Assembly: GCA_027493295.1 (NCBI GenBank)
Contig: JAPVWS010000464.1
Span: 1 to 41,983, forward strand
From: Candidatus Versatilivorator vitaminiformans
GTDB taxonomy: Bacteria; Acidobacteriota; Terriglobia; Versatilivoradales; Versatilivoraceae
DNA length: 41,983 nucleotides
Reading direction: 5' to 3'
Within the stretch, counting starts at the first letter, position 1. Each line of letters starts with the position of its first letter. The notes under the pieces were generated by a model, which saw only the letters and a program-made list of their open reading frames with translations, was not told where the DNA came from and made no database searches. This document shows positions 8,100 through 23,998 of the stretch, piece by piece. A program made the position numbers and the translations under genes.

Positions 8100-9359
8100 C
8101 TACCGGCGCCGGAGCGCCAGGACGCGCTCGTTCTCCGGATCGAAGTGCAGCACCTGTGAAAGCCGGTAGGCAATCTCCCCCAGGTGGATCAGGGCGCAGG
8201 AAAGGTGGGCTTCCCGGGCGGGAGCGGTGGGGCGGGAGCGGTCGCGCACGCACTGAAGGAACTGGGCCATGTTCTGACGACCGGTCTCGGCCAGGCTCCC
8301 TTCCTTCATGCCCTCTCCCTTGTGCTCTTTCTTGCCCATGTAAACCTGAAAATATCCTCGCCGCGAGAGCACCATGTATCCCTCGGTCCCGTAGAAGGTG
8401 TTGCCGCTGTCATACCCATGGAGCCCGTAGGGTGTCCAGAGGCGTTCCTCGTAGAGGAGCACCTTTCCCTGCCCGTACTGGTAGGCCACCATCATGTTGT
8501 CCGGATATTCCCGCGCTCCCGCCAGGTCGATTTGGCTTCCGTGGGCGGTGATGCGCTCGGGGTGAGTGTCGACGCCCAGCGCCCAGCGGGCAAGGTCCAG
8601 ATCGTGGGCCCCGTCGTCGCCGATATCCCCATTGCTGTAGTCGCGGAAGAGCCTCCAGTTGCGATGAAATCGATTGGGGTTGAAGGGACGACGCGGGGCC
8701 GGACCCAGCCACCTGTCGTAGTCGACCCCCTCGGGAACCGGCCCATCCGGCGCCATCGGGCGCTCGATCTGCCGCTGCACGTTCCAGGCCTTGGTCGTCT
8801 TGACCTCGCCCAGGGTCCCGGCAGCCAGGATCTCGCCGGCCCGGGCCAGCAGCGGGCTGGCCCGCATCTGGGTTCCGTGCTGAAAGATTCGATTGTATTT
8901 GCGTTCCGCCTCGACCAGAAGCTGACCCTCCCGAAAGACGTGGCTGGCGGCCTTTTCGACATAGACGTCCTTGCCGGCCTTCATGGCTCGCAGGGCCATG
9001 GGAGCGTGCCAGTGGTGGGGAGTGGCGATGACGATGGCGTCGATAGAGGAGTCGGCCAGGACGTTGCGGAAGTCGCCTTCCAGCTTGGGCGTCTTGCCGG
9101 TCGCATTCTTGACAGTCTCACTTACCTTCTGCAGAACCGCCGGGTCCACGTCGCAGAGAGTCACGATGTGGGCATCGGTCCGGTTGGCCAGGGTCCTGAC
9201 GTGAAAGTGGCCCATGCCGTTGATGCCGATCACGGCCACATTCACCTTCTCGTTAGGCGAGCTGGATCCGGACCGGATTGCCAGAGTGCCCATCATCCCC
9301 AAAGCGGCCGATCCGCCCAGCGAGTAGGACAGGATCCTGCGACGAGTAATCGTTTTCAT
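8100..9359 (-). CDS. Gfo/Idh/MocA-family NAD(P)-dependent oxidoreductase with a twin-arginine signal
   Basis: MKTITRRRILSYSLGGSAALG is a Tat-like leader. It is followed by a Rossmann block (VAVIGINGMG), then D.VYVEKA and the C-terminal alpha/beta domain typical of the family. Start at ATG 9359. Confidence 0.9.
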   Translation of the reverse strand: MKTITRRRILSYSLGGSAALGMMGTLAIRSGSSSPNEKVNVAVIGINGMGHFHVRTLANRTDAHIVTLCDVDPAVLQKVSETVKNATGKTPKLEGDFRNVLADSSIDAIVIATPHHWHAPMALRAMKAGKDVYVEKAASHVFREGQLLVEAERKYNRIFQHGTQMRASPLLARAGEILAAGTLGEVKTTKAWNVQRQIERPMAPDGPVPEGVDYDRWLGPAPRRPFNPNRFHRNWRLFRDYSNGDIGDDGAHDLDLARWALGVDTHPERITAHGSQIDLAGAREYPDNMMVAYQYGQGKVLLYEERLWTPYGLHGYDSGNTFYGTEGYMVLSRRGYFQVYMGKKEHKGEGMKEGSLAETGRQNMAQFLQCVRDRSRPTAPAREAHLSCALIHLGEIAYRLSQVLHFDPENERVLALRRR

Positions 9360-9430
9360 AGTCCTGTATCTCCGTTGGCGCCGGCCGGCGGCGCCCTCTA
9401 TGCCTCTACCCTCTCCCCGCATCCCGCCGC

Positions 9431-10729
9431 TCAATCCTGCAACCTGTGGTCGGAACTCCTAGGCGCAAACAAGATCACGACGACTCCGACCCCGTAGATG
9501 AAACTGGTCACCCTTCCGATGCGGGCATAGTCCCCGTCGAAGTGAGCAATCAGCCATCCGGCCAACAACACGGCTACCGCCGTCAGGATGCGACCGAAAT
9601 TGAAGCTGACCCCGGCGCCGGTGGAACGGGCGGCGGTGGGAAAAAGCTCCGGCAGGAACAGCGGCAACCACCCGAAGTAGACGCCGGAGAAGAATCCCAG
9701 GACCGAAGCCCAAATCAGAAAAGTATCATCGGTGGGAGTCAGCAGCCAGAACATGTACTGACTGGAAAATAGAGCTCCCAGACTCATCAGCAAATAGGTG
9801 CGATGCCGGCCCACCAGGCTGGCGATGACGCCCCCCAGGAGGCTTCCGATCGTCCCTGTCAGCGATCGGCAAAACTGAACCCAGGCTTTCAGGTGAGGGT
9901 CGGGCGGATCGGCGGCGGCGCCGGCCTCGCCGGCCCAGGGGATCATCCAGTTGGAGGCGCCCCACCCCCCCAGCAAGGGAACGGTCCCCAATGCGATACC
10001 GATCAGGGTCAACCGTCGCAGAGGCGGCCGGAAGACCTCGGCGGTGGCTTTGGACGGCTTTCCCGGGTCGGGCCGCGGGGCCCGTCGTTGCGCCAACCAG
10101 CGGGGCGACTCCGGAACCGCGGCCAGCACGAACAGCCCCAAGACCACGGGCGCCGCCCCCACCACCATCACCCAGCGCCAGGTGTCCGGGGTGATTTCAA
10201 CTCCCGTGGCGGTCCAGGCCATCAGGAGCAGGCCCACGTTGGCTGCCGTCCCCATGATGCCCGCCAGGATCGGTCGCGAGAGATCGGACCAGGCCTCCGA
10301 GACAATGGCCACGCCATTGGGCCACATGCCTCCGATGCCCAGGCAGGTCAAAAACCGTATGACCAGCAACTCGAAGGGACTTTGGGCCCAATAGGCCAAT
10401 CCGGAAAAAACGGAGAGACACAGAATGCTCCACCCCATGGCCTTGACACGGCCGAACCGGTCTCCCAACCGGCCAAAGAGCCAGCCCCCCGCGGCGGCGC
10501 CGAAGAGAAAGGCGCACACGTACCAGGCGAACCACTTTCCAACCAGAGCCTCGTTGGTCGACTGAAGCAGGTCGATGGCTGCCGAACGCATGGCCAGGGC
10601 GGTGATGGACATCTGCACCCCGGCGAACATCCACCCCAGAAAGGCCGTCACCACGATCAGGTAGCGGCCCCCCGCGGATAGTGGCTGGGGAGCAGGACCC
10701 GGCAGTCCCGCTGCTGAAGCATCCGGCAT
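9431..10729 (-). CDS. MFS transporter
   Basis: About 12 hydrophobic segments, the MFS signature G.L.DR.GR (GRLGDRFGR) after TM2, and PESPRW at the central loop. Start at ATG 10729 (MPDASAAG); the upstream part of the ORF is Arg-rich junk overlapping the VOC gene. Confidence 0.88.
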   Translation of the reverse strand: MPDASAAGLPGPAPQPLSAGGRYLIVVTAFLGWMFAGVQMSITALAMRSAAIDLLQSTNEALVGKWFAWYVCAFLFGAAAGGWLFGRLGDRFGRVKAMGWSILCLSVFSGLAYWAQSPFELLVIRFLTCLGIGGMWPNGVAIVSEAWSDLSRPILAGIMGTAANVGLLLMAWTATGVEITPDTWRWVMVVGAAPVVLGLFVLAAVPESPRWLAQRRAPRPDPGKPSKATAEVFRPPLRRLTLIGIALGTVPLLGGWGASNWMIPWAGEAGAAADPPDPHLKAWVQFCRSLTGTIGSLLGGVIASLVGRHRTYLLMSLGALFSSQYMFWLLTPTDDTFLIWASVLGFFSGVYFGWLPLFLPELFPTAARSTGAGVSFNFGRILTAVAVLLAGWLIAHFDGDYARIGRVTSFIYGVGVVVILFAPRSSDHRLQD

Positions 10730-11469: not shown

Positions 11470-12813
11470 CTATATCAGCTCTTCGATCGGCCGGCCGGTG
11501 GTGTCGTCGAAGGAGTTGGCGATCTTGATGGGCCGGCCCACCGGGGTCATGTATTCCTTGGTCCAGTCGATTCCCATGGCCTTGTAAATGGTGGCGAAGA
11601 CGTCTCCCACCGAGATGGGACGCTCGGCCACGTATCCGCCCCTCTCGTCGCTGGCTCCGATGACCTGTCCCCCCTGCAATCCCCCTCCGCCCAGGACCAT
11701 GGACCAGCAGAAGGGCCAGTGGTCGCGGCCGTTGATAGGGTTGATCTCCGGGGTGCGGCCGAACTCGCCCATGGCCATCACGATGGTGGACTCCAGCAGC
11801 CCGCGCTGCTCCAGGTCCACCAGCAGAGCCGTCAGGGTCTGGTCAAGAGTGGGGCACAGCAGGGCCCGCAGCTTCTTGTCGTTCTCTCCTCCCGACCCCC
11901 GGCCGTGGGTATCCCAACCGCTGTCCAGATTGTAGCCGGCCGCGGTGACGAAGCGAGAGCCGGCTTCCACCAGGCGCCGGGCCAGCAGGGCGCTCTGTCC
12001 GAATCCGTATCGGCCGTAGGCATCCTTGGTCGTCTCCGACTCTTGAGAAAGATCGAAGGCCTTCTTCATGGCCGGAGAAAGGATCATCTCCATGGCCTTG
12101 TCCCGAAAGGTCTCCCGCGCCGCCCCTTCCGTCAGGACCTCCTTGCGGCGGTAGAGATCGTCCACCACCTGCAGAAAACCGCGGCGATCCTCGATCCGCT
12201 TCTCGGTGATGGATTTGGGAAGTGTGAGGTCCTTGAGCTTGAAGTCCTTCTTGCTGGGATCGGGGACCACCAGCGGATTGTAGGCGGCTCCCAGGGAAGA
12301 CGCTCCATAGTAGCTCTGGGTGAGATGGGGCGCGCCCAGCACGTAGGGAGGAATGTCGTTGCGAGGCCCCAGTTCCCTGGCAATGATGGACCCCACGCTG
12401 GCAAACTCCATGGCCGGGGCCGGGCGGTGACCGCTGGTGATGTACTCCCGGCCCAGGGGATGGTCCACTTCCTCGTGGGTCATGGAGCGAATGATGGACA
12501 GCTTGTCCATGTGGCGGGCCATCCGAGGCAGGATCTCGGAAACCTGGATTCCGGGCACGTTGGTGCCGATGGGCCGGAAACCGCTGCTGGGTTTCGGATC
12601 CCAGGTGTCGACCTGGCTGGGCCCCCCTTCCAGCAGGAGCAGGATACAGGCCTGGGCCTTGGCCGGGGAGGCCTTGACACCCGAAGCAGCCATCAGGCCC
12701 TTCATTTCGAGATACTGGCCCAGGTGGATCCCCACCAGGCTCAGAGAACCCACCCGCAGAAAGTGCCGGCGAGCCAGGCTCTCGCAGAAACTGTCGCATC
12801 CCCATCGGTTCAT
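11470..12813 (-). CDS. DUF1501 domain protein (sulfatase-like fold, Tat-type leader)
   Basis: RRHFLRVGSLSLVG leader, then blocks typical of DUF1501 proteins: LEGGPSQVDTWDPKP, GWDTH, GEFGRTP.IN...GRDHW and G.V.G.SD..G. Confidence 0.9.
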   Translation of the reverse strand: MNRWGCDSFCESLARRHFLRVGSLSLVGIHLGQYLEMKGLMAASGVKASPAKAQACILLLLEGGPSQVDTWDPKPSSGFRPIGTNVPGIQVSEILPRMARHMDKLSIIRSMTHEEVDHPLGREYITSGHRPAPAMEFASVGSIIARELGPRNDIPPYVLGAPHLTQSYYGASSLGAAYNPLVVPDPSKKDFKLKDLTLPKSITEKRIEDRRGFLQVVDDLYRRKEVLTEGAARETFRDKAMEMILSPAMKKAFDLSQESETTKDAYGRYGFGQSALLARRLVEAGSRFVTAAGYNLDSGWDTHGRGSGGENDKKLRALLCPTLDQTLTALLVDLEQRGLLESTIVMAMGEFGRTPEINPINGRDHWPFCWSMVLGGGGLQGGQVIGASDERGGYVAERPISVGDVFATIYKAMGIDWTKEYMTPVGRPIKIANSFDDTTGRPIEELI

Positions 12814-12835
12814 GACCGGGACTCTCCTTATGAGT

Positions 12836-15304
12836 TCAGTGGTTGTTCAGGAACTGTTCCGAGTTCACCACGGCCCACAGCAGATCCTCCACCGCCTCTC
12901 GCCGTGAATCCTGCCGCCGGATCATGTCTTTCAGCGCGGCCTGCTCGGCTTCCGTCGGGAAGCGGCACAGGGCGGCCAGGTACAGCTCTTCAATGATGGC
13001 CTCATCGGAAGCTTTATGCTGCAGCAGGCGGTCCACCCGTCCGCCCTCCCGGGAGAGCTTGGCGGTGAAGGTCGGACCCGCCAACTGGTGCAGGGCCTGC
13101 AGCAGGCTGGGCTTCATGTCGCGTTCGGGAATAAAGCTCAGGTCGGGCTTCCCGTAGACGTTGAAGAAGTTTCCGTCTTCTCCCTTCACGCCGCTCACGT
13201 GGGAGATGGCCCTCAAGAGCACCTCGGTGTCCAGGGGGCGTGGAAGCGCCCTGGAATAGTTGACCCGATCGTAGCGGTTGGTGGGGTTGGGATCTCCCGA
13301 TAGCTGATAGGTCCTGGACTCCACCATGAGACGAATGAGGGAACGCAGATCGTAGCCGCTCCTGACAAAGTAGCGGGCCAGGGCCTCCAGCAGCCGGGGA
13401 TGGGTGGCCAGGTTGTTGGAGCGAAAGTCATCCACCGGATCCACGATCCCCCTTCCGAAGAAATAGCCCCACATGCGGTTGGCCATGGCCGGGGCGAAGT
13501 AGGGGTTTTCCGGCGAGGTCATCCACTCGGCCAGCGCCAGCCGCCAGTCCTCCCTCCGGTCCTCGGGCACGGGACTTCCGTCCAGGAACCTGGGCTGAAC
13601 CTCCTGCTTGGTGCGGGGATGAATGACCTTGGCCCCCTTGCCGAAGGTCCCGTAGCCTTCGGGATCGTCCACGATCACGAAATCCACCTGGGGGAATCCC
13701 GGATGGAGGTTGCTGAGCCGCCCGAAGAAGGCGGTCAGACCCCAGAACTGATTCTGGCTCCAGGACTCGTAGGGGTGGTCGTGGCACTGGGCGCAGTCCA
13801 TCCGCCGACCCAGGAAGACCCGGACCTGCTCCCCCATGGCATTCTGCGGCAGAGGCACGGCCGTGCCTCCCATATCCTCGTAGTGGCGGGAGGGACCGTC
13901 GAAACCCTGGGCGGCCACCCGCTCCCGGGCGAACTGGTCGTAGGGCTTGTTCTCGGCAATGGCCCGGCGAACCCAGTCCTTGTAGACCGGGCTGATCACC
14001 CGCAGGAAGTCGTAGAAGCGCCAGGACCAGTGGTCCACGAACTCGGGCGATCGCAGCAGCAGGCCGATGAGCCGGCTCCGCTTCTGCGGGTCCGGGTCGG
14101 CCAGGAACCGGCGCACGCGATGAACGGGAGGCAGCCTGCCGGTCAGGTCCAGGCAGAGACGCCGCAGAAACTCGGCGTCGGAGGAGAGCGGCGAGGGAAC
14201 CAGGTGAAATTTGCGGGCCTTGGCGAAGACATGGTCGTCAATGAAGTTGTGGCGGGGAACCTCGGGGTAGGCCGCCACCGGCTCCTCGATTACACCCACG
14301 GTGGCGCTGGCGCTCTGCCCGCCGGCCAGCACCTGGATGGAGGTCTCGCCCACGCGCCGCCCCGTCAACCGGCCATCGGGTCCCACCGAAACCACTTCGG
14401 GGTTGTTGGACAGGTAACGCACCTGGCGGGTGAAATCCTCCCGGGTGCCGTCAGCCCAATGGGCGGTGACCAGCAGTTGCCTAGTCCCTCCCGTCTGCAA
14501 CACCACCTGACCGGGCGTGACCGCCACCCGCTCCAGCGCCGTGGATCGAGAGCCATTCCTGGACCCGTAGACCGCGCCCCCGGCGACCCAGTCCCGGATG
14601 CGCCCATAGTCGGGGGAGTCTTTCCGGAGCCGTTGGCCGCCCCCGTGGGGCACCTCCAAGCTGGCCTTGAGCAGCAACAGACTCTGATCGGGATCCTCCA
14701 TGTGGATCCGGGGCACCTTCTCGCCGGTCTCGGCCGTGAGGACGTGGAAGGCGCCGCCCTCCACGATCCAGCCGTAATCTTCCCGGGGAGCGGTGGCGTT
14801 CTTGGAGAGCTTGAACCCGCCCTGTCCGGTGACGCTGCCGTGACACTCGGTGCTGTTACAGCCCCGCTTGGTGAGAATCCTGGAGATGTCGCGATCGAAA
14901 CGGAGGGGAGGGCTCACGGCCGAATCCCGCACCTGCACGGCCGCTTGCAGAACCTGACCCGAAGACTGGACGGTCAGCAGCGTTTGCCCGTCGGATCGCG
15001 CCCTCACCCGGCCCCGGGCATCGATCTCGGCCAAGGCGGGATCGGCAAGGGTGAATCGGCTGCCCTCGGTCAGGTCACGCTCCAGACCGTCGGCATAGGT
15101 TCCGATGACCAGAAGCTGCTGGGCAGCGCCCTTGCCCCGCAGTCGCACCTCTTCGGGCAGGAGCCTGACGGAAAGCAGGCGGGCGGCGGGGGACAGCTCT
15201 GCGCCCCTCTTAAGGCCGGCGGACCCAAGAGTCGCCGGCCAGCCCAACAGTCCTATCAACAAGCCGATAGTGCAGAGATCGGACCGGGGGAGAATTCTCC
15301 CCAT
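12836..15304 (-). CDS. DUF1549/DUF1553 (PSCyt2/PSD1) protein with Ig-like (Big_2-type) domains
   Basis: GCNSTECHGS...GQGGFKLS, DCAQCHDHPYE..SQNQFWGL.AFF, NR.WG.FFGRGIVDP.DDF and a C-terminus ending DLLWAVVNSEQFLNNH are characteristic of this family. Two Ig-like segments flank the first Cys motif. ATG 15304 has an AAAGGAG SD 8 nt upstream; ATGs at 15334 and 15343 are alternatives. Confidence 0.88.
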   Translation of the reverse strand: MGRILPRSDLCTIGLLIGLLGWPATLGSAGLKRGAELSPAARLLSVRLLPEEVRLRGKGAAQQLLVIGTYADGLERDLTEGSRFTLADPALAEIDARGRVRARSDGQTLLTVQSSGQVLQAAVQVRDSAVSPPLRFDRDISRILTKRGCNSTECHGSVTGQGGFKLSKNATAPREDYGWIVEGGAFHVLTAETGEKVPRIHMEDPDQSLLLLKASLEVPHGGGQRLRKDSPDYGRIRDWVAGGAVYGSRNGSRSTALERVAVTPGQVVLQTGGTRQLLVTAHWADGTREDFTRQVRYLSNNPEVVSVGPDGRLTGRRVGETSIQVLAGGQSASATVGVIEEPVAAYPEVPRHNFIDDHVFAKARKFHLVPSPLSSDAEFLRRLCLDLTGRLPPVHRVRRFLADPDPQKRSRLIGLLLRSPEFVDHWSWRFYDFLRVISPVYKDWVRRAIAENKPYDQFARERVAAQGFDGPSRHYEDMGGTAVPLPQNAMGEQVRVFLGRRMDCAQCHDHPYESWSQNQFWGLTAFFGRLSNLHPGFPQVDFVIVDDPEGYGTFGKGAKVIHPRTKQEVQPRFLDGSPVPEDRREDWRLALAEWMTSPENPYFAPAMANRMWGYFFGRGIVDPVDDFRSNNLATHPRLLEALARYFVRSGYDLRSLIRLMVESRTYQLSGDPNPTNRYDRVNYSRALPRPLDTEVLLRAISHVSGVKGEDGNFFNVYGKPDLSFIPERDMKPSLLQALHQLAGPTFTAKLSREGGRVDRLLQHKASDEAIIEELYLAALCRFPTEAEQAALKDMIRRQDSRREAVEDLLWAVVNSEQFLNNH

Positions 15305-15351
15305 CCGCCCCGGACTCCTTTTCCCTGTTCTCATCCTGTCCATGCGGTCCT

Positions 15352-17352
15352 TCAGTTGCCCGGAGAAAGCACCTGGCTGACGGCCGGTCCGCCCTCCGCG
15401 GGATGGAGCACCATCATGGGGATTCGGGCCACGGGTATCGATGCTCCCATCTGTCCCTCCCAGATGGGCCGAAAGGGATCCTCCCCGGTCATCTTGCGAT
15501 AGCGGTTCAGCCGGCCGGGTTGAACCGGACGCAGGTGGAACCGGAGCCACCGGGGAGTGGCCGTTGGGGGCGCGTCCGGACGAACCGCCAGCAGCAGGGT
15601 GACCACCTGGTCTTCCGCGGCAAAGACCTCCTTGCGGCCCTGGTCCTGGGGCAGTCCCAGCTCCGGCCCCATATCGGCTCCCGGTAGCACCTCGACCCCC
15701 TCCGGGAGGTTGTCCACCGAGACCGCCAGGTCTCCGGCAAACCCCTCCTCCCGGCTGATAATGACGCTCACCTTCTTGGCCTCGCCGGGATAGAGATTGA
15801 CTCGATCCAGCTCGATCATCCAATCGAGCATTTCCCGGCCCAGAATGTTCAGAACCTCCGCCACCTCGACCTCGCCCACATGGGGCACCTGGGGACGCAC
15901 CAGGAGCCGATAGCGGAAACCGGCCCCGCCCTTGCGGCGGGTCACATCCCGAACCCGGATCAGGTAGGATCCGCTCTCCGGGAGGCTGAAGACCATCTTG
16001 GACTCTGCCGTCTTCCAGAACCACATGTTCTGGGAGGCCTGCCGCTTGTAAATGTTGTTGACCAGTTCCCGGCCTGCCTCATCGACGACCTCGATGCGCG
16101 GATTGAAGTAGGGATAGTGGCGCTCGGGAGTCTCGATCTCGAAAGCCAGGTCCAGCGCCTCCTCCAATTCGAAACGGAAGTGGTCCACGTCGGCGGGAAA
16201 GTCGATGGCTCCCTCGACAATGGAGGGAATGGCAACGGTGAGGGCCTGCCTGGCAGCGTCGTTGGGCTCCTGTTCCTGGACAATGGCGGCTGGGCCGGCG
16301 GCGGCAGGGCCGGTCGGGCTCTCCTCGCCGCTCAGACCCATCAGGTCCCTAAGCTGCTTTTCCAATACGGCCAGTGTAGCCTGGCGGGCCGATCCTCCCG
16401 ATCGAGCCTGCAATCGGACCAGGCGGTCCGACTCCAGCCTGCGGGTGAAACCTCGCTCCTGCCATCGGTTCGCGGCCAGCTTGTCAAGGCCCTGGGCCCG
16501 GACCAGCGGAGGAAAGTCGGCGGGCGCACCGATTTGCAACTGGTAGGTGGCGCCCGGCTCCCCCTTGACTCCCAAGGTGTACCAGCCGCCCTTTGCGAAA
16601 CGGTGGATCAGCCTGGGCTTGTAGGCCGAGATGAACTTGTGAAAGACGGCGGTATTGGCGGCGCCCAGCTTCACTCGGCGCTCGGCATCGAACCAGCTCT
16701 CGCCGGGCCCGGAGAGTTCCAGAGAAAACCCCGGAGCCCTCCGGAGGTCCCCCCACAAACGCTGCACGCCTTCCACCACCTCGAAGGCCAACTCCTGGTC
16801 CGGTCGGGCCTCGAACCGGTAGAAATCGACCTGACCCTCTTCGGCAATCCGCCCGCTGAGGGCCGAGGGAACGGCTATGGACTGAGCTTCCTTCGCAGTC
16901 CCATGCTCCTCGGCCGTCTCCTGGAGGGTGGGCATGGGAACCACCCAGAAGATCAGCTCGTTCGAGACGCCCTTGGACGAAACCAGCCTCAAGGCGTGGG
17001 GGCCCCGTTTGGCTCCCGGGTCGATATTGACGGCCGCCACCACCCTTTGCCCCGGGATGTCCTTGACCTTGCGCCCCTCCTTCATCCTGGCCGAGCCGGG
17101 CTCCACCCGGACTACCCGACCCTGGATGGCGTCGGTGTCGGCCCAGAGGGCTCTGGCCCCCTCCAGATTCCTTCCCAGGATCTCGATCTCCACACTGCTC
17201 CCCGGCTGCCCGCCCAGAGGAAACATGTGGATGGCTTCAGGATCGGTGGGCTGGAGCCCGGCGGCGCCGGATTCAGCCTGCGGAACTCCCGACAGGAGAA
17301 GCGCAATAACCACACAACCCCAATATCCTGCAGCCTTTCGCCGGAATGCCAC
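15352..17352 (-). CDS. secreted protein with two pre-peptidase C-terminal (PPC)-like domains
   Basis: Two segments have the PPC pattern (EA..IA.P....G.I...G.VDFYRFEA and EPNDAARQAL....PSIVEGAI.FP.DVDHFRFE). The signal-like N-terminus is AFRRKAAGYWGCVVIALLLSGVPQA. Start chosen at GTG 17352, which has GAGG 7 nt upstream; GTG 17373 is the ORF-track start. Confidence 0.7.
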   Translation of the reverse strand: MAFRRKAAGYWGCVVIALLLSGVPQAESGAAGLQPTDPEAIHMFPLGGQPGSSVEIEILGRNLEGARALWADTDAIQGRVVRVEPGSARMKEGRKVKDIPGQRVVAAVNIDPGAKRGPHALRLVSSKGVSNELIFWVVPMPTLQETAEEHGTAKEAQSIAVPSALSGRIAEEGQVDFYRFEARPDQELAFEVVEGVQRLWGDLRRAPGFSLELSGPGESWFDAERRVKLGAANTAVFHKFISAYKPRLIHRFAKGGWYTLGVKGEPGATYQLQIGAPADFPPLVRAQGLDKLAANRWQERGFTRRLESDRLVRLQARSGGSARQATLAVLEKQLRDLMGLSGEESPTGPAAAGPAAIVQEQEPNDAARQALTVAIPSIVEGAIDFPADVDHFRFELEEALDLAFEIETPERHYPYFNPRIEVVDEAGRELVNNIYKRQASQNMWFWKTAESKMVFSLPESGSYLIRVRDVTRRKGGAGFRYRLLVRPQVPHVGEVEVAEVLNILGREMLDWMIELDRVNLYPGEAKKVSVIISREEGFAGDLAVSVDNLPEGVEVLPGADMGPELGLPQDQGRKEVFAAEDQVVTLLLAVRPDAPPTATPRWLRFHLRPVQPGRLNRYRKMTGEDPFRPIWEGQMGASIPVARIPMMVLHPAEGGPAVSQVLSPGN

Positions 17353-17385
17353 GGCTTCGCCTCGATGGAACACGGATCTGGCGAA

Positions 17386-17414
17386 AGTATACCGGAGTGA
17401 GCCCCTCGTCTCAA
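17386..17414 (-). promoter_or_regulatory. candidate sigma-70 promoter for the PPC / DUF1553 / DUF1501 genes
   Basis: On the minus strand, TTGAGA (17414..17409), a 17-nt spacer, then TATACT (17391..17386). This lies 13 to 34 nt upstream of the two candidate GTG starts. Confidence 0.35.
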
Positions 17415-17460
17415 TCTTCGAGGATCATCCGCGAAGGGCTGCGAACGGAAAAGAGGAATC

Positions 17461-17500
17461 CACCAAGGAACACGAAGGACAACGAAGACACACGAAGAAG
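17461..17500. repeat. degenerate CACGAAG-unit low-complexity tract
   Basis: caccaaggaacacgaaggacaacgaagacacacgaagaag is the same style of purine-rich CAC(A/G)AAG units as 11266..11330, but without a matching second arm. Confidence 0.5.
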
Positions 17501-17571
17501 AATTGACTGCCTTCGCCGACATGCGGCGCCAAAATTCTTCGGCATTATCGAGACGGTGGCGGGCATGAATA

Positions 17572-17687
17572 GGGGACGTTGTTGAATTACTGGAATAACT
17601 TCGATCGGCCGCTGTTGAATTGCTTTGATTCAGTAACGTCTCCTACTGGCTCTTTACAGGTTATTCCAGTAATTCAACAACGTCCCC
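17572..17687. repeat. 116-bp palindromic element with perfect 28-bp terminal inverted repeats (MITE-like or structured RNA)
   Basis: ggggacgttgttgaattactggaataac (17572..17599) is the exact reverse complement of 17660..17687, with a 60-nt spacer. Hand-counted GC is about 45%, below the flanking sequence. Imperfect extra pairing is possible outside the arms (gggcat / atgccc). Confidence 0.9.
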
Positions 17688-17851
17688 GGCGCTCAAGGTT
17701 TATGCCCCTTCGCTGCGGCAGCGATTGAATGCATGCTTCAATGCGGCACTTGAAGGGTCCATTGCCAATTTCAGCAGCGTTGATCGCTTCAGGGCGAAGT
17801 GCATGTGAACATCTCGGCGGTGTCAATCCGGAAGGGTGGAGCGAAGGACTT

Positions 17852-18997
17852 TCAATTCAGACTCGACATGAAGCCCCGGGTGCTTCCGGATTTCCCCAGT
17901 TGTTCCACCACCTTCTCAATCAGGGAAATGAACCGGGACTCCATTGCGCCGGTTCGGGTCAAGATTGTGCCGTTCTCGTCGGCCAGCACGTAGGTAGGAT
18001 AGGATCTGGTACCCAGTAAACGCCCGAGGTCACTCTCCTTGCCCGCGTGCCAGTTCGTCCAAGGCATGGGTTCTTCCTGAATAAACCTGGTCACGGTCCC
18101 AAGCTCCTCGTCCGCGCTGATCGCGACCAGAGCGAACCGGTCCGCCGGCAGCTCGGCAACCAGTTCCCGAAGCTTCGGCAGATGTGCGATGCACGGCCCG
18201 CACCAGGTTGCCCAGAAATTGAGCAGCACGATGCGGCCCCGATAGTCCGACAGTGCTTCCTCGATGCCGTCGAGCCGCCTGCCCATCACGTCCGGCAAGG
18301 TGCGGGGCCGTAGGCTGCGAAATACCTCCGCCTCCGTGCCTGCCAACGCTTGAGATATTGGAGTGCCGGCAGCGTAGACCTGCATGATCTTCTCCTCCTT
18401 CCACGCAAGGTCATCGATCTTGTAGTCTTCCGGAATCTTGAAGACCGATGGTTCAGGCTCGGCGTACCGGATGTCGTAGAGTTCTCTGACTTGCCTTCCT
18501 CGACCCGAGCTGGTCTCCGTTTTGACCCTCAGGTTAGCGTCTTTCGCCACCCAGACTTTGCCGGCAGACTCCTCTGAATTGCCCGGGGACAAGACAGGCA
18601 TTGCCAGGCAATCGAGCCCTGCAATGACTCCTTCGTCAACTGCCTTGTCAGGCCTTAACACAAAAGGGCGGAACGGGCCTGGCCGGACCTGTTTAAGGGT
18701 TGCTTCCTTGAGATGGTGGTTCAAAACATAGGTTCTTCGAGTCGAGGAATCCATGAGAGTCGATCTATGCATTCTGCGATTCTTCCCTTTGACTCGCGCC
18801 ATGGTATCCAGCACCGAACCGGAGGAGGAACGGAAGTAGGTGCCCTCCTCCCGCATGACCTCCATTTCGCTTCCATCGGACTGAATGAGGTAGTGAACGC
18901 TTCGCTGCTTGGCGATTACGGGCACGAATTGAGCCCGCAGCTCGGTCTCCCAGCAGAACACAAAAACCAGGCAAGTGACCAAAGTGGTGATTTTCAT
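17852..18997 (-). CDS. secreted fusion protein: unknown N-terminal domain (paralog of 21980..22618) plus a C-terminal TlpA/ResA-like thioredoxin
   Basis: Signal peptide MKITTLVTCLVFVFCW. Residues about 25..200 share motifs with the 212-aa protein upstream of the repressor. The C-terminus has the thiol-disulfide oxidoreductase signature (VLLNFWATWCGPC....P.L, SYPTYVL.D..G). GAGAGGTG SD upstream of ATG 18997. Confidence 0.85.
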   Translation of the reverse strand: MKITTLVTCLVFVFCWETELRAQFVPVIAKQRSVHYLIQSDGSEMEVMREEGTYFRSSSGSVLDTMARVKGKNRRMHRSTLMDSSTRRTYVLNHHLKEATLKQVRPGPFRPFVLRPDKAVDEGVIAGLDCLAMPVLSPGNSEESAGKVWVAKDANLRVKTETSSGRGRQVRELYDIRYAEPEPSVFKIPEDYKIDDLAWKEEKIMQVYAAGTPISQALAGTEAEVFRSLRPRTLPDVMGRRLDGIEEALSDYRGRIVLLNFWATWCGPCIAHLPKLRELVAELPADRFALVAISADEELGTVTRFIQEEPMPWTNWHAGKESDLGRLLGTRSYPTYVLADENGTILTRTGAMESRFISLIEKVVEQLGKSGSTRGFMSSLN

Positions 18998-19089
18998 GCA
19001 ACACCTCTCTTTCTCTCGCTAACACTACCAGGCTGAGTGAATCGCCGGCGGTTGTGACTCGAACTTGGCTCCGAGTCCGCTTTTTCCCC

Positions 19090-19401
19090 CTATACCCCTA
19101 TAAACAGTCGAAACGGCGATGGATTACAATTTTTTTTCGGAGGGGCACTTCGGGACTGTCTGAAGCCCTGTGGCGAATACGATCGAGCGCGTGCATCAAT
19201 GCGGCGCTTGAGCAAAGCGATGGCAGGGTTCATGCGGACGGCGACATTGCTGCGGGAGACATGAAGGCGTCGAGAGATTTCCTTGTTGGAGAACCCTTGG
19301 TAGAGGCACAGCTTGATGACCTGGCGGCAGGTTCCTGGCAGCAGATCAATCATTTCCCTTTGGAGAGTCACCACACGGTCATCCTGTCCCCGGGGGATCA
19401 A
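19090..19401 (-). pseudogene. orphan sigma-70 region 4 (ECF-type) fragment
   Basis: LLPGTCRQVIKLCLYQGFSNKEISRRLHVSRSNVAVRMNPAIALLKRRI is a region-4.2 HTH. No region 2 is present, and the ORF's first 23 nt overlap the 3' end of the M56 gene. Confidence 0.55.
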
Positions 19402-21502
19402 GAACGAACTTGATGGTGATGGTGGTAACCACCTCGACCCATTCTCCCTGACGGAGGGTCGGTTTGTACTTCCACTGTTTCACCGCGTCTACAACCGAAG
19501 CAGCCACATGACCGTAAAGTCTCGGTTCTCCATCGATTGTCCTCAGGGCTTGGACTGAACCGTCTTTCCCAATGTTGGCTTCCAGCACCAACAATCCTTC
19601 GATTCCGATAGAGAACGCCCCGGATGGACAGGGCGGTTCCAACCGGTACAGGATCTTCTTCCGCTGCTCGTCCTCGTTGACCCGAACCCGCTCCGACGAT
19701 GGTTGTGAGTCGAACGCGGCGGGTGATCCAAATTTCAGGGCTTGCGTTGGAAACCGGCGCGGAGGTGCAGGGGCCGGAAACCTTGCCGGCACAGTTCCCC
19801 AGGTATCGCCGTCGGCGAACTGAACTCCCAACACGGCAACCGTGAAATCCTCGGGAATCTCTTCTATCGGGAAGTAGATGACATATGGATGAAACACACG
19901 ATTGTGCGGGTCCGAGCGTAGCCAATTTTGAGGAGGGAAGTGTCTAAATGGGCCACGAAGGAATCTTTGGGCACGTTTTCCAGGCATACGGTCGGTCGAG
20001 AACGAGCCGTGGGGTTCCAGGTCAAGCTGATACATCTCGGCGTGCACTGTACGCCGGAGGGAGGCATGGCGGAACTTCAACCGGACAGCAGTGATCTTCC
20101 TGGCCGTTCGACTGGATAAGCTGACACGCGGCAGGAGCAGGTAGACGCCTACCCGCTCGACCTTCATCGCCCTCAAACCGGCATCGGTGATGAGAATCGG
20201 ACTGCCTGGCGAATTTAGAAACGATATCGGTAATTCCGGACTCTGCTCGATTTGCTGCAAGGTGATAGTGGGAGGAGGAGATCCTATCCGGTTGTTACGC
20301 ATGGATTCATCGACCAACGGTCCGCATTCGCTGCCGGACATGCGCACCACCGCACTCACGTCTTTCGGAATCCCTTCCCGACTGGTTTGGATCCGTGGTG
20401 AGTATCTATTGGTCGCACCGCTCCAAGTCGCGTAGGCATCACGGTTCACAAAACCCGCGCCCAAGGAAAAGACGGCCAGCCCCCCCACCAGTCCAATGAT
20501 CAAGGCGCGTTCCGGGGCGCCGAGCTTTCTCGGTGGCTCGGTGGACAGGAGATGTTTCATCCGTCGCTTGAGGCTTGCGCCGCCAATGGAAGAAATTCCG
20601 ACCAGCCGCTGCTCCACGCAGGCCCTGGCAACCTTTAAAACTCCCGAGACATAGGTCTCCGGAGATTTCCCAAGCCGTATGACTTCCTCATCGCAGGCTC
20701 GCTCCCTCTCCTCGGACAACTTCCGGTCGATGAGCCAGGCAAGAGGATAAAACCACAGGACAGTCGTAATCGCTTTCTGGAGGACTACAGCCAGGTTGTC
20801 CCTGCGCTCCACATGTAGCAGTTCGTGGAGCATGACTGCTTCCAGTTCCTCGTCGCTCAAGCGGCTTGCGGCGGCTTCGGGCAACAAGACCGTAGGTTTC
20901 CGAATTCCCCAGAGTCCTGCTACGGTGACTTTGTCCGAAACGAGGATATCGACGTCCCGATTCAACAGAAGCCAGGAGCGGACTCGCTTCAGGACCTGCG
21001 TTTCTCTGGAAGAGACGAGCGCAAAGCGGGTCTTGACGGCCCAGGCCAGGTTCAAAGAGCCTCTCGCCCAACGAAAAGCAAAGAACGCCAACCCAGCCAG
21101 CCAGGTCAGCGTGAGCGCGCAATACAGTTCGTTGTGGTCTTCAGCGGACACGGGCTGACCGGCAACGGGCTGGCCCAGCAGCAAGGGCTTGAGGATTTCA
21201 TAAGCGGGTCTTCCCGGGTCGACGGCTTGAGCCCCATGGGTTGACTGTTCCGGGAGTGGGGGGGAAAGGGATGGCGCGGCGGAAGGAATTTCCGATACCA
21301 GCCATGCCAACAGGACCGAGGGAACGAGCAGCTTGAACGCGGCCAGCAGCCAGAACCAGTAACGGGTACTTGCCGGCGTCCGCTTGAGCAACCGGACACC
21401 CAATGCCAGCAATCCGACGAAGAGAGTTGCCTCCCAGAGGTGGACCAGGACATTGGGCCACAGCCAGGAAGACAACTCTGCCAGCCACGGGTGCGTGTTC
21501 AT
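19379..21502 (-). CDS. BlaR1/MecR1-like M56 metallopeptidase fused to a TonB C-terminal-like domain
   Basis: N-terminal TM segments and the zinc motif HELLHVERRD with downstream ERACDE. A further TM (ALIIGLVGGLAVFSLGAGF) is followed by about 300 aa I cannot assign. The C-terminus resembles TonB_C (G.LVLEA.I.KDG.V......I...........A.VDAVKQWKYKP....G). Confidence 0.88.
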   Translation of the reverse strand: MNTHPWLAELSSWLWPNVLVHLWEATLFVGLLALGVRLLKRTPASTRYWFWLLAAFKLLVPSVLLAWLVSEIPSAAPSLSPPLPEQSTHGAQAVDPGRPAYEILKPLLLGQPVAGQPVSAEDHNELYCALTLTWLAGLAFFAFRWARGSLNLAWAVKTRFALVSSRETQVLKRVRSWLLLNRDVDILVSDKVTVAGLWGIRKPTVLLPEAAASRLSDEELEAVMLHELLHVERRDNLAVVLQKAITTVLWFYPLAWLIDRKLSEERERACDEEVIRLGKSPETYVSGVLKVARACVEQRLVGISSIGGASLKRRMKHLLSTEPPRKLGAPERALIIGLVGGLAVFSLGAGFVNRDAYATWSGATNRYSPRIQTSREGIPKDVSAVVRMSGSECGPLVDESMRNNRIGSPPPTITLQQIEQSPELPISFLNSPGSPILITDAGLRAMKVERVGVYLLLPRVSLSSRTARKITAVRLKFRHASLRRTVHAEMYQLDLEPHGSFSTDRMPGKRAQRFLRGPFRHFPPQNWLRSDPHNRVFHPYVIYFPIEEIPEDFTVAVLGVQFADGDTWGTVPARFPAPAPPRRFPTQALKFGSPAAFDSQPSSERVRVNEDEQRKKILYRLEPPCPSGAFSIGIEGLLVLEANIGKDGSVQALRTIDGEPRLYGHVAASVVDAVKQWKYKPTLRQGEWVEVVTTITIKFVLDPPGTG

Positions 21503-21546
21503 GGGAGATAGCGCTCCTCACCTGCTGGCAGGCTCCTGTCCGGAAC

Positions 21547-21966
21547 TCACTCGGGCTTCGGATCCAAGTCAGCGGTCCCCGCTCGGCGGGTCTTTCTTTC
21601 CTTGAGGATCCCTTCCAGTTCCCTCAGGTCTTCCAGCGTCAGTTTGCCCGTGTCGGCCAGATGTGACATCACCGGTAGGGGGGAACCGCTGAACATCTCC
21701 AGAAAATCGTGCACCAAACGGCGGTAGGCCTGCCTTCGGGTGATGACCGGGACAAAGACATAAGCGTTCCCGATCTTTCGCTGTTTTCGCAGGGCTCCCT
21801 TTGCCTCCAGGCGAAAGACCAGCGTTTGGACGGTCGTATAAGCGAGCTTTTTGCTGACAGGCAGCTCCTCCAGAATCTCCCTGATGGACGCCCTGCCGAG
21901 TTTCCAGAGCGCTTCCATCGCCTTGAGTTCAAGAGGCGAGAGTTTGATATGGTTCCCCTTTGTCAA
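21547..21966 (-). CDS. BlaI/MecI/CopY-family transcriptional repressor
   Basis: LSPLELKAMEALWKLGRASIREILEEL.....AYTTVQTLVFRLEAKGAL......G.AYVF.P is the winged-helix N-terminal domain of the family. TTG start at 21966 has an AAAGGAGG SD 7 nt upstream and lies 14 nt after the preceding stop. Confidence 0.88.
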   Translation of the reverse strand: MTKGNHIKLSPLELKAMEALWKLGRASIREILEELPVSKKLAYTTVQTLVFRLEAKGALRKQRKIGNAYVFVPVITRRQAYRRLVHDFLEMFSGSPLPVMSHLADTGKLTLEDLRELEGILKERKTRRAGTADLDPKPE

Positions 21967-21979
21967 GAAGACACCTCCT

Positions 21980-22618
21980 TTACCTCTTATTGCCGAGAAC
22001 AGGACTGGTATTGGTGATCGTGTAGTCCTCCGGAATCGCAAAGACCGACGCACTCGGTTCCCCCTGCCGGATATTGAAGAATTCCCTGATCAGGCGGGCT
22101 CCACCAGGAAAGGTGACGTCAGACTTGACGATCAATTGCAGGGCCTCGGAAAACCAGGACCCACCGGGGGACAATTCTCCATTCACGAAGTTTGGTTTGC
22201 CCACGCACTCCACACCATTGATGACTCGTCTGCCCAAGGGTTCCGATCCTGGTGAAACCCTGAAGGGAGAGGGCAGCAGCGGGAGCGGCAACTGTCTCAT
22301 GAGCCGCGCGGTCTTCCGATCGTGATTGATGAGATAGACGTTGCCGGTGGCGGCATCCTTGAAGTGTGCCCGTCCGGTTGGCTGCCCATCCTCGACGTTG
22401 ATCCGGGTCCTCATCTCCGAACCTGAGGACGCACGAAACAGCACACCGGTGGACTCTTCCAGCAGTTCCTCCGAACCATCCGGCAGCGTTCGATAACTGA
22501 GCTCTTTGAATTGAGCTGTCAAGGGGAGCCACTGTCCTTGCAGTACCAGGGGAAGGGTCAATCCGAGAACAAGTGTGGCGCAAAACGACAGATATCTGCT
22601 CGTAGTCTTTCCGTTCAT
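21980..22618 (-). CDS. secreted protein of unknown function (paralog of the N-terminal domain of 17852..18997)
   Basis: ATG 22618 with a GGAGGTG SD. Signal peptide ..SRYLSFCATLVLGLTLPLVLQG. Motifs shared with the thioredoxin fusion: DGSE, FRASSGS, YLINH, REFFNIRQGEPSASVFAIPEDYTI. Confidence 0.75.
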   Translation of the reverse strand: MNGKTTSRYLSFCATLVLGLTLPLVLQGQWLPLTAQFKELSYRTLPDGSEELLEESTGVLFRASSGSEMRTRINVEDGQPTGRAHFKDAATGNVYLINHDRKTARLMRQLPLPLLPSPFRVSPGSEPLGRRVINGVECVGKPNFVNGELSPGGSWFSEALQLIVKSDVTFPGGARLIREFFNIRQGEPSASVFAIPEDYTITNTSPVLGNKR

Positions 22619-22718
22619 TGTTTCACCTCCAAAGGATCTGACGTCCCTGATAGAGTGCGATCCATAGTCACAACATCGGTCGAAGGGAAGACCGTTCATT
22701 CAAAGCAGGCAACTCTTC

Positions 22719-22762
22719 TATAGGGATAACGTAATTATACCTATATATGTAGTAGTCATCAA
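22719..22762 (-). promoter_or_regulatory. candidate sigma-70 promoter with an overlapping 27-bp palindromic operator
   Basis: On the minus strand, TTGATG (22762..22757), a 17-nt spacer, then TATAAT (22739..22734). The dyad tatagggataac-gta-attatacctata (22719..22745) matches at 10 of 12 arm positions and covers the -10 box. It sits in the most AT-rich patch of the window, about 100 nt upstream of the first gene of the repressor/protease operon. Confidence 0.45.
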
Positions 22763-22918
22763 CAAATTTTTTTATCCTGATGCGACCATCACAACGGTCT
22801 CTGATTAATCGATGGAGCCATTCCCACGCGCTAGGACCTCGAGTTGCAAGATACCCTTCTCTCGTGACCGCCACACATGTAGCCGCGAGGGGCGCCCGGC
22901 CTCTGCACCGGACTCCGC

Positions 22919-23998
22919 TTACCGGGCGCCGGCTAGCTGCATGGGGTGGTGGAGCCGGTAGTGCCAGGCCAGCACGTCCCGGCCGAAGTCTCCGTCGAAG
23001 TCTCTCCAGACGGAATGGCTGTGGTTGTTGTTGTTCTGGGTATTGTCGTATTCGATCAGAAAGGAAGGGGCCTGCACCCGGTAGTAGTCACCGGCTCCCG
23101 GTTTCACCGAGCCGGCCCAGGCGAAGAAGAGCTGGTCCGAAGGGGTTTTCCGGGCCTTTTGCATCCGTCGCTCGGCGACCTCGTCCGGAAGGATGTTGGC
23201 ATACTCGCCGATCAGGGCCATCAAGCGGTTCACCTGCGCGGCGGTCATTTCCGAGGCCGCCAACCCTGACGGCTGGCCTTCCAGCTTGGCCCGCGAATCC
23301 GCCTTGGTGAGGACATCGGGATAGGCAGTCTCGGCCACCACCGCCTTGCCGAGCTGCCTGGCGTTCAGAGACCGGACCAGGGCGCGCGCCAGGTCCTCCT
23401 CCTTGGCCAGGGCTCTCATGCCCTGGTAGCGGCCCGCCAGCACCCGGTGGGGGTTGGCTCCCAGGAAGGTGGGGCTGGCCGAAACCAGGTGACCCTCCTT
23501 GAAGGTGAAATTCAGGGAAATGTGGTGCCCCTCCACTCGGAAGCCCCAGGTCCCCTCGTGCGACGGCTTGCCGAAAACACTGAAGTAGTACTTGTCGATG
23601 TCCCGGTTTCCGGTAGTGTCCTTCTCCAGCACCCGCAGGATCTCCTCCAGGGTCTGGACCGCCATCACCTTGGCGAAGCCGGCCTGGCTCAGACCGGCGG
23701 CCAGCAGAGCATCGGCCAGTCGGCGCTGTTCGGGAGCCATGCCCTTGTAGTTCACCCCTTTTCTGGCGTAGCCGTATTCCCTGGCGAAAGCGCTGTCCGG
23801 GAAGAAGTGCCACACCGTCCGGGTCTGGTGGCTGAAGTCGTAGACCACCTTGGCCCGCTGCTCCTCCGTGAGCGAGTTCACAAACCGGGTGGCGGTTTCA
23901 TACAGGACCGTCTCGGTCCTGGTCCGGTGGTGGGCCGCCACAAGGGCCAGGGCGCAAACGGCCAGCGCGCAGAGTCGGAAAGTCGTGGGCTTGGTCAT
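22919..23998 (-). CDS. DUF3500 domain protein (secreted)
   Basis: Signal peptide MTKPTTFRLCALAVCALALVAA. The blocks W.F.P, YYFS.FG.PS....WG.R.EGHH.SLN, FLGANP and FLIEYDN.QNN.NH.H.VWRD are as I recall for DUF3500. Confidence 0.8.
   Translation of the reverse strand: MTKPTTFRLCALAVCALALVAAHHRTRTETVLYETATRFVNSLTEEQRAKVVYDFSHQTRTVWHFFPDSAFAREYGYARKGVNYKGMAPEQRRLADALLAAGLSQAGFAKVMAVQTLEEILRVLEKDTTGNRDIDKYYFSVFGKPSHEGTWGFRVEGHHISLNFTFKEGHLVSASPTFLGANPHRVLAGRYQGMRALAKEEDLARALVRSLNARQLGKAVVAETAYPDVLTKADSRAKLEGQPSGLAASEMTAAQVNRLMALIGEYANILPDEVAERRMQKARKTPSDQLFFAWAGSVKPGAGDYYRVQAPSFLIEYDNTQNNNNHSHSVWRDFDGDFGRDVLAWHYRLHHPMQLAGAR

Follow-up and report, generated by a model that had tools for sequence, protein, structure and literature searches.

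We have analysed a stretch of 41,983 nucleotides (nt) from the acidobacterium Candidatus Versatilivorator vitaminiformans (NCBI GenBank assembly GCA_027493295.1, contig JAPVWS010000464.1), which as a whole is called the window, and in particular a module on its minus strand that reads from position 22762 to position 17852. According to the list of open reading frames (ORFs) and the domain scans, this module consists of a promoter, the gene for a secreted protein that we call A, a BlaI/MecI-type repressor gene, a gene for an M56 zinc protease that ends in a TonB_C domain, the remnant of an extracytoplasmic function (ECF) sigma factor gene, and the gene for a second secreted protein, B (Table 1). 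An initial annotation, made from the sequence alone, had described a near-consensus promoter followed by five minus-strand elements and had assigned BlaI, M56, TonB_C, sigma region-4, and thioredoxin domains to them; all of these were found in their places, and the domain scans gave the same assignments. Of the two distances it had given, the 44 nt between the BlaI and M56 genes are correct, and the 14 nt between A and BlaI become 13 nt (AGGAGGTGTCTTC, from the stop codon of A to the start codon of BlaI, which is preceded by an AGGAGG ribosome-binding site). The labels L001-L040 denote the loci of relatives that were fetched for comparison with the window.

Table 1. Features of the module (window positions, unless the locus of a relative is named; aa, amino acids).
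Feature	Position	Strand	Description
Sigma-70-type promoter	22734..22762	-	TTGATG-17 nt-TATAAT, 10/12 consensus matches; CTACTACA in spacer
Inverted repeat (candidate operator)	22719..22745	-	TATAGGTATAA-N5-TTATCCCTATA; spans -10 box; 11-nt arms, 91% complementary
A	21980..22618	-	212 aa, secreted; signal peptide by reading; single LolA-fold domain (predicted)
BlaI/MecI-type winged-helix repressor	21547..21966	-	139 aa, TTG start
M56-TonB_C protein	19379..21502	-	707 aa, starts 44 nt past the BlaI gene
M56 (BlaR1-type) membrane zinc-protease module	20499..21502	-	residues 1 to ~335; HELLH at 226-230
Periplasmic middle region of the M56 protein	19700..20380	-	predicted beta-sandwich core (~residues 415-575) + Pro-rich linker
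TonB_C domain	19379..19627	-	residues 626-701 of the M56 protein
ECF sigma remnant	19153..19428 (ORF 19090-19401)	-	Sigma70_r4_2 E 9.4e-10
ECF-type promoter candidate	19087..19129	-	TTGTAATCCATCGCCGTTTCGACTGTTTAT; upstream of B
B	17852..18997	-	381 aa; LolA-fold ~23-200 (predicted) + TlpA/ResA-like thioredoxin 234-347 (WCGPC); signal peptide by reading
Mini-protein ORFs of relatives	L012 5737-5949; L013 5753-5989; L020 6428-6670; L023 6732-6968; L026-L039		upstream of each LolA-like gene

Proteins of the module

Protein A has no match in Pfam or NCBIfam. Its AlphaFold2 model (predicted local distance difference test score, pLDDT, 82.8) is all-beta, and a Foldseek search with this model gave 63 matches in the PDB at E<=1e-3, headed by LolA (8orn, 8chx, and 4ki3; E 1e-7, template modelling (TM) scores of 0.5-0.6), just the kind of half-barrel that had been guessed from the sequence. 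LolA is followed by VioE, DUF1329, and the ependymin-related proteins (EPDR1), with E values of 1e-7 to 1e-5 and TM scores of 0.45-0.6 overall; at the sequence level, neither A nor its family profile has a meaningful match in the PDB. On the strength of the predicted model, A is LolA-like at the level of the fold and lies outside the curated sequence families of the LolA clan. With the LolA/LolB superfamily, which includes LolA, VioE, DUF1329, the ependymin-related proteins, and the N-terminal domain of RseB, it shares a predicted unclosed beta-barrel; it differs in its nearly invariant cysteine C138, in the disulfide-rich peptide that is the conserved partner of its family (see below), and in not being encoded beside lolCDE. 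No lol gene was called in the fetched neighbourhoods.

A profile search of 1.84 billion representatives gave a family of 735 representatives (50% identity) at E<=1e-3, nearly all of which are stand-alone proteins of ~200-225 aa. The family records are either labelled Acidobacteriota or Terriglobia or come from unlabelled metagenome contigs; the 52 close homologues of A are unnamed or labelled Acidobacteriota, and its genome matches are in Candidatus Versatilivorator and other Terriglobia metagenome-assembled genomes. Among 72 diverse members, no Pfam family was matched, apart from two weak matches to DUF4412 (E 4e-4). Across the broad family, P32, A35, and G66 (A numbering) are invariant, and G48, G58, R62, G135, E187, P188, and the single cysteine C138 are kept in at least 90% of the members. 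The conserved Cys13 of A might suggest a lipoprotein, an assignment rejected by reading: the residue is part of the hydrophobic core of the signal peptide, with an AxA-type site (LQG/AEA before QW) after it.

The N-terminal part of B is a paralogue of A, with 65 of 196 residues identical (33%; BLASTP E 1e-28, far above chance), close to the ~30% that had been estimated by eye. The rest of B is a thioredoxin that matches AhpC-TSA (E 1.1e-15), Redoxin, and Thioredoxin_8, and that finds TlpA and DsbE (E 1e-16 to 1e-17), as well as TlpA 1jfu (E 1e-15), in the PDB. In its exported WCGPC thioredoxin fold, B resembles TlpA, ResA, and DsbE, including the Bacteroidetes TlpA-like proteins with N-terminal beta-rich domains, but its thioredoxin is fused to a LolA-fold domain, and its scores are below the NCBIfam equivalog cut-offs for TlpA (64.9 versus 230 bits) and ResA (59.1 versus 170 bits). 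This fusion was found only in the 50%-identity clusters P0060, P0079, and P0181 and in L024. Other long family members (P0115, P0122, P0097, and others) were rejected as fusions; their N-terminal extensions are domain-free and look like mis-called starts. As far as the sequences tell, the thioredoxin fusions are the only real fusions in the family. An identical B protein is encoded on 11 contigs, three of which (L017-L019) are shown, with the same gene layout in all of them. B is intact only in the species of the window, L016, and L024, and remnants of it are seen in L002/L006 and L007; a metagenome scan for relatives of B with a single protein query found none.

The repressor matches Penicillinase_R (PF03965, E 7.5e-26; cut-off 22.6 bits) and, in the PDB, BlaI and MecI. 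The protease module of its neighbour, which contains HELLH, matches PF05569 (E 2.4e-32, 112.8 bits versus a cut-off of 31 bits) and the BlaR1 chains solved by cryo-electron microscopy (8exs/8exp, E 3e-6). The tail of the same protein matches TonB_C (PF03544, E 2.9e-8, 34.5 versus 24.6 bits) and TonB2 (2k9k, E 1e-8). Full-length TonB models stay far below their cut-offs, and the N-terminal part is M56, with no TonB anchor. No match to a transpeptidase-like penicillin-binding sensor was obtained for this protein, and the NCBIfam model blaR1_generic reaches only 81.9 bits against a cut-off of 400, over residues 116-329. The M56-TonB_C architecture had been thought probably not new, and rightly so: it is the second commonest of 254 architectures among ~15,000 M56 proteins, as reported in a preprint on CenIR of C. 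difficile (10.64898/2026.04.08.717257), and is therefore an already known, although uncharacterised, fusion. According to the same preprint, a penicillin-binding domain is present in only ~6% of M56 proteins, a BlaI gene lies within five genes of ~96% of them, and BlaIR systems also control non-beta-lactam outputs (10.64898/2026.04.08.717257).

Between the protease module and TonB_C lies a region of ~270 residues that is specific to this clade, since only ~20 homologues cover it. AlphaFold2 predicts its core as a beta-sandwich with pLDDT values of 80-93. The initial annotation had noted in this region an IPEDF string similar to one shared by A and B. The string is present, and homology between A and the region was rejected: the probability in a profile-profile comparison (hhalign, A-family profile versus the region) is only 0.1%, so the resemblance is due to chance.

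Linkage and promoters in related loci

The genes for A, BlaI, and M56 are linked in every locus of the A clade (47-100% identity in A) with the exception of L040, in three gene orders and with several different flanks. The order A-BlaI-M56 is seen in the window, L001-L008, L016-L018, and L020-L022; L009 has sigma-A, followed by BlaI-M56; and L023 has BlaI-M56-peptide-A. In L040, an A-like protein (59% identity) is encoded together with a full-length ECF sigma factor and a peptide (order sigma-peptide-A, 5933-7615), without BlaI or M56. The L040 contig is apparently circular, 32 kilobases (kb) in length, and carries ParA-like, Tn3, IS91, and integrase genes; from this gene content, the cassette may move on plasmids. 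BlaI and M56 genes were never found near the members of at most 37% identity (L010-L015 and L025-L039). The linkage of the shared domain with BlaI/M56 pairs, which the initial annotation had put forward, holds within the A clade, L040 aside, and does not extend to the more distant members.

A remains beside BlaI-M56 even where the periplasmic part of the M56 protein has been exchanged. In L004 (8117-10816) and L007 (8072-10816), residues 1 to ~361 of the M56 protein are fused in frame to a CarboxypepD_reg protein, the orthologue of which is encoded downstream of M56 in L002; judged by this arrangement, the fusion is a natural sensor-domain swap by deletion. L005 has the same M56-CarboxypepD_reg region in a frameshifted form. 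In the sister clade (L020-L022), L021 still has the TonB_C coding sequence and aligns over residues 1-701, with an 81-aa TonB_C ORF split off by the gene call; the alignments for L020 and L022 stop at residue 627, and TonB_C is missing there. By these comparisons, the sensor part of the M56 protein is evolutionarily plastic.

The promoter of A is one of two promoter-like sites in 5.4 kb, and shuffled sequence gives ~1.8 sites; because shuffling yields nearly as many, the weight of this promoter rests on its conservation. Its -35 box, CTACTACA, and GGTATAAAT are kept upstream of A in the Versatilivorator clade (L002-L007), and in L020-L022 and L008 the same promoter lies ~730 nt 5' of A, that is, before the peptide gene, and is followed by a perfect dyad, TCTACA-A-TGTAGA. 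In L009, a promoter of the A type lies upstream of BlaI, inside the dyad TGTAATA-N8-TATTACA, and in L023 the dyad TAGTAG-ACT-CTACTA is situated between the M56 gene and the peptide gene. These dyads in the relatives are of the TACA/TGTA type that is known for BlaI, MecI, and CopY. In the window, the near-palindrome TACATATATAGGTA (22738-22751) overlaps the -10 box, and the inverted repeat listed in Table 1, only partly conserved among the orthologues, is a candidate operator by its sequence. No common operator consensus could be derived across the lineages, in which the dyad spacings differ. An Rfam search of the window and of 17.4-23 kb found no leader RNA in the conserved 115-nt 5' untranslated region of A; the only match was RAGATH-5 (E 0.6), well below the threshold.

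A different type of promoter is associated with B. In a tblastn comparison, the full-length sigma factor of L009 (196 aa) matches the window over residues 110-196 alone, and the gene in the window is therefore a remnant; region 4 was found at 19090-19401 and region 2 was not, and the M56 gene extends into the 5' part of the remnant. The motif TTGT[AG]A-N10-16-TCGA-N1-2-GTT occurs eight times in 853 kb. In seven cases, the motif closely follows this ECF sigma gene or what is left of it, and the gene that comes next is A in L009 (6874), the peptide gene in L040, and B in the window and in L016-L019. The remaining copy is also from L040, where it is found 5' of the sigma gene (5850 and 6544 for the two copies of this locus). 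The motif is likely to be a cognate, autoregulated ECF promoter. Since it precedes B downstream of the remnant, B has a promoter of the sigma type in front of it while the sigma gene at the locus is dead, and we infer from this layout that B is a separate unit with a truncated sigma gene. The initial annotation had described the module as bracketed by the two paralogues; to see in this bracket a designed unit would be at odds with the separate sigma-type unit, with the few relatives in which B is intact, and with its decay in L002/L006 and L007.

All four genes, A, BlaI, M56, and B, are intact ORFs in the window as well as in L016-L018; L019, which is truncated within the M56 gene, shows only part of that gene and B. 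In L001, the M56 gene is distributed over several frames (9217-10283), and the promoter and the peptide are also missing; that of L023 (4233-6334) has a frameshift near residue 111. These broken copies reflect either decay or errors in the assembly of long-read metagenomes. The G+C content is 0.56-0.59 over 17-23 kb of the window, compared with ~0.62-0.67 in the flanks and 0.70-0.73 at 1-5 kb, and by this measure the low-G+C module at 17000-23000 may have been acquired horizontally.

As for the neighbouring genes, every close relative keeps, on the downstream side of the module, the gene for a 673-aa protein (15352-17373, minus strand; signal peptide by reading); no Pfam domain is recorded for the orthologues in L002 and L016-L019. 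At 11470-16024, also on the minus strand, lie the genes for a PSCyt2/PSD1 (DUF1549/DUF1553-type) protein and then a DUF1501 protein, named after the Pfam labels of the syntenic genes in L016/L017; this pair is better known from the Planctomycetes.

Disulfide-rich mini-proteins upstream of the LolA-fold genes

A small ORF separates the conserved promoter from A in the sister clade, and a scan of all fetched DNA found ORFs of the same type upstream of distant family members. Six-frame translation of this DNA gave 5,862 ORFs with a length of 40 aa or more; 23 of them end in CCxC[ATSW] or GCxCW, and without exception these are upstream of a family member encoded on the same strand. With a further locus scan, 16 metagenome loci were added, 14 of which have enough upstream DNA to be judged: the mini-protein ORF lies 15-72 nt upstream of the LolA-fold gene in 12 of them, and 810 nt upstream in the other two, with a second LolA-fold paralogue in between. 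Overall, such an ORF directly precedes a family gene in nearly every relative for which upstream DNA is available. These mini-proteins consist of a signal peptide and 39-68 residues with an even number of cysteines in every case (6, 8, or 10); 9-25% of the residues are aromatic, the charge is neutral to acidic, the ends read GCCxC[AT] or RGCxCW, and there is no match in Pfam or NCBIfam. The ORF is missing in the window, L002, L004, L007, L009, and L010. The two-gene cassette is found under the ECF sigma factor in L040 (L009 has the sigma gene and A without the peptide) and under the BlaI-type promoter in L020-L022, L008, and L023. To judge from gene neighbourhoods, the real conserved partner of the LolA-fold family is a disulfide-rich secreted peptide, which the initial annotation had not noticed.

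Several variations of the cassette were observed. L026 carries a tandem duplicate (92-2177; peptide-LolA-like, peptide-LolA-like), and in L033 one peptide is followed by two LolA-like paralogues (6-1916). In a Sulfotelmatobacter-like context (L012, L014, L015, and L026-L032), the cassette is always followed, ~800-1900 nt downstream of the LolA-like start, by two genes, one for a strongly conserved 74-aa protein (MAVSSIQLGQVWRSDADGQDYLVTKVY...) and one for a membrane protein with a DedA/VTT domain, and it is preceded by a divergent gene for a HhH-GPD glycosylase. Literature searches on LolA-like proteins with BlaI, on Versatilivorator, and on LolA-like and cysteine-rich proteins in the Acidobacteria found nothing relevant.

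Possible functions of the module and its families

The explanation that we favour, with somewhat better than even confidence in it as a whole, is that the module contains a BlaIR-type switch with an M56-TonB_C sensor, that A is the cargo regulated by this switch, that the LolA-fold family binds mini-proteins, and that B forms a separate unit. A, blaI, and the M56 gene are separated by only 13 and 44 nt and have a single conserved promoter in front of them; A would be co-transcribed with the two regulatory genes, and it is this output gene that is unusual, the switch as such being an ordinary one. By analogy with the BlaR1/BlaI and CenIR paradigms, BlaI would repress the promoter of A through the overlapping TACA/CTACTACA-type sites; a signal in the envelope would reach the periplasmic part of the M56 protein and activate its cytoplasmic zinc protease; and BlaI would then be inactivated and the operon derepressed. 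The non-regulatory product of such an operon would be A, which is therefore best seen as regulated cargo, one of two roles offered by the initial annotation and the one that fits the evidence. The LolA-fold protein would serve as a periplasmic binding partner of the mini-proteins, as a carrier, a chaperone, or a neutraliser, and the mini-protein gene would have been lost from the locus in the window. The thioredoxin on B plausibly serves the disulfide chemistry of the mini-proteins; such a pairing explains the fusion at least as well as the envelope redox stress that had been proposed for it.

Several observations speak against this explanation. The window clade shows only the half-site CTACTACA and imperfect palindromes, clear dyads being confined to relatives, and because the spacing of the dyads varies between lineages, the operator assignment is weak and stays a matter of inference. 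The N-F cleavage site of staphylococcal BlaI is, by reading, not conserved in the BlaI of the window, and the middle region of the M56 protein has no significant fold match in the PDB (best E 0.07, to generic beta-sandwiches). The putative binding of peptides by LolA-fold proteins is deduced only from gene adjacency, and no Cys-rich mini-protein ORF was found in the window by the motif, by tblastn, or by six-frame reading of 17374-17860, so that A and B have no local copy of their proposed ligand. Decay is seen in many copies from the relatives, as fragments of M56 in L001, as frameshifts in L005/L023, and as remnants of B, and selection on the locus is possibly weak for this reason.

The alternative that we rate highest, and nevertheless consider improbable, is that the module has no joint function and is a decaying patchwork in a mobile island, in which rearrangement has brought together a LolA-like gene, a BlaI-M56 pair, a thioredoxin fusion, and a defunct sigma gene. 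The drop in G+C content, the sigma remnant, the B remnants in L002/L006/L007, the fragmented M56 of L001, and the frameshifts of L005/L023 would all be expected of such an island, as would the transposase and integrase genes beside several relatives and the plasmid-like L040. On the contrary, the A-BlaI-M56 association persists over 47-100% identity in A, in three orders and with varied flanks; its genes share a conserved promoter; and A, BlaI, M56, and B are intact in the window and in L016-L018.

A second alternative, which we rate lower again, returns to the other role once suggested for A, that of an RseB-like accessory sensor, which would bind to the periplasmic portion of the M56 protein, or offer a ligand to it, and so gate the proteolysis of BlaI, much as RseB does with the cleavage of RseA. 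A has the fold of the superfamily that includes the N-terminal domain of RseB, it is conserved next to BlaI-M56 throughout its clade, and its orthologues and the M56 middle domain are limited to the same narrow clade. The RseA/RseB/DegS-RseP system is also similar in that a LolA-class protein stands beside a membrane proteolytic system, with an ECF sigma factor nearby in the relatives of the window; the module differs in having no anti-sigma factor, no second domain of RseB, and no site-1 or site-2 proteases, and A is favoured there as an output and not as a gatekeeper. A consists of a single domain of ~180 residues, without a MucB_RseB match or an adjacent anti-sigma gene, RseB is absent from its top 50 fold matches, and A is not homologous to the middle region of the M56 protein. 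Three observations argue against such a co-sensor: the sensor swap, in which A stays linked although CarboxypepD_reg repeats have taken the place of the whole periplasmic portion of M56; the 59%-identical member in L040, which has an ECF sigma factor and no M56; and the more distant members, which have neither M56 nor BlaI.

Least probable of all is a reading in which the mini-protein, auto-inducing or derived from competitors, is the signal sensed by M56, the LolA-fold protein is its carrier or sink, and the window is a “listener-only” locus without its own peptide gene: the promoter-peptide-A-BlaI-M56 layout of L020-L022 and L008 does resemble auto-induction loops, a dyad-bearing promoter directly precedes peptide and A just after the M56 gene of L023, and the peptide is exported to the compartment of the M56 sensor, but the replacement of that sensor leaves the linkage of A unaffected, and the pair of peptide and LolA-like protein is widespread without BlaI/M56, also under an ECF sigma factor, so that its basic function is independent of M56.

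The reading of A as regulated cargo leaves room for a bolder extension, to which we give limited credence, greater than that given to the three alternatives. The LolA-fold protein and the mini-protein would form an undescribed two-gene envelope cassette, a carrier and a knottin-like peptide, limited so far to records labelled Acidobacteriota or Terriglobia and to unlabelled metagenome contigs, that different lineages wire either to an autoregulated ECF sigma factor or to BlaI/M56. In the BlaI-linked clades, the mini-protein would perhaps be the ligand of the M56 sensor; if true, this would be a peptide-sensing circuit with a proteolytic read-out, with B as a disulfide-processing variant of the carrier.

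Among the known systems, the closest are BlaI/BlaR1 and MecI/MecR1 of Staphylococcus and Bacillus, CenIR of C. difficile, and BlaI/BlaR of M. tuberculosis, in all of which, as in the window, a Penicillinase_R gene lies directly upstream of a gene for an M56 HExxH protease; an adjacent gene as the likely output is a further common feature, and BlaIR promoters carry TACA-type motifs, to which the candidate sites in the promoter of A may correspond. In contrast to BlaR1/MecR1, the protease in the window has a clade-specific beta-sandwich and TonB_C in place of a transpeptidase-like sensor, and its output would be a LolA-fold periplasmic protein instead of a beta-lactamase or a penicillin-binding protein. 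TonB1 and TonB10 of Bacteroides thetaiotaomicron have the same architecture of an N-terminal M56 and a C-terminal TonB_C domain, whereas the intervening region of ~270 residues is peculiar to the clade of the window.

Non-penicillin BlaR1-like M56 proteases far outnumber the canonical ones, and almost none of them has a known signal or output; in the window, the output would be an identifiable one, the LolA-fold protein, and comparison of the relatives shows the module that provides it to be exchangeable between ECF-sigma and BlaI/M56 control. The most interesting element lies, in our view, outside the window, in the pairing of LolA-fold protein and mini-protein that was reached through the two paralogues of the window. 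An uncatalogued family of 735 representatives with a near-obligatory peptide of 6-10 cysteines, neither gene of which is in Pfam or NCBIfam, may matter more than the switch itself. If the pair binds, it would constitute a new kind of carrier-cargo system of the periplasm, in a little-studied phylum that abounds in soil, and it would offer a testable candidate ligand for one class of orphan BlaR-like sensors.

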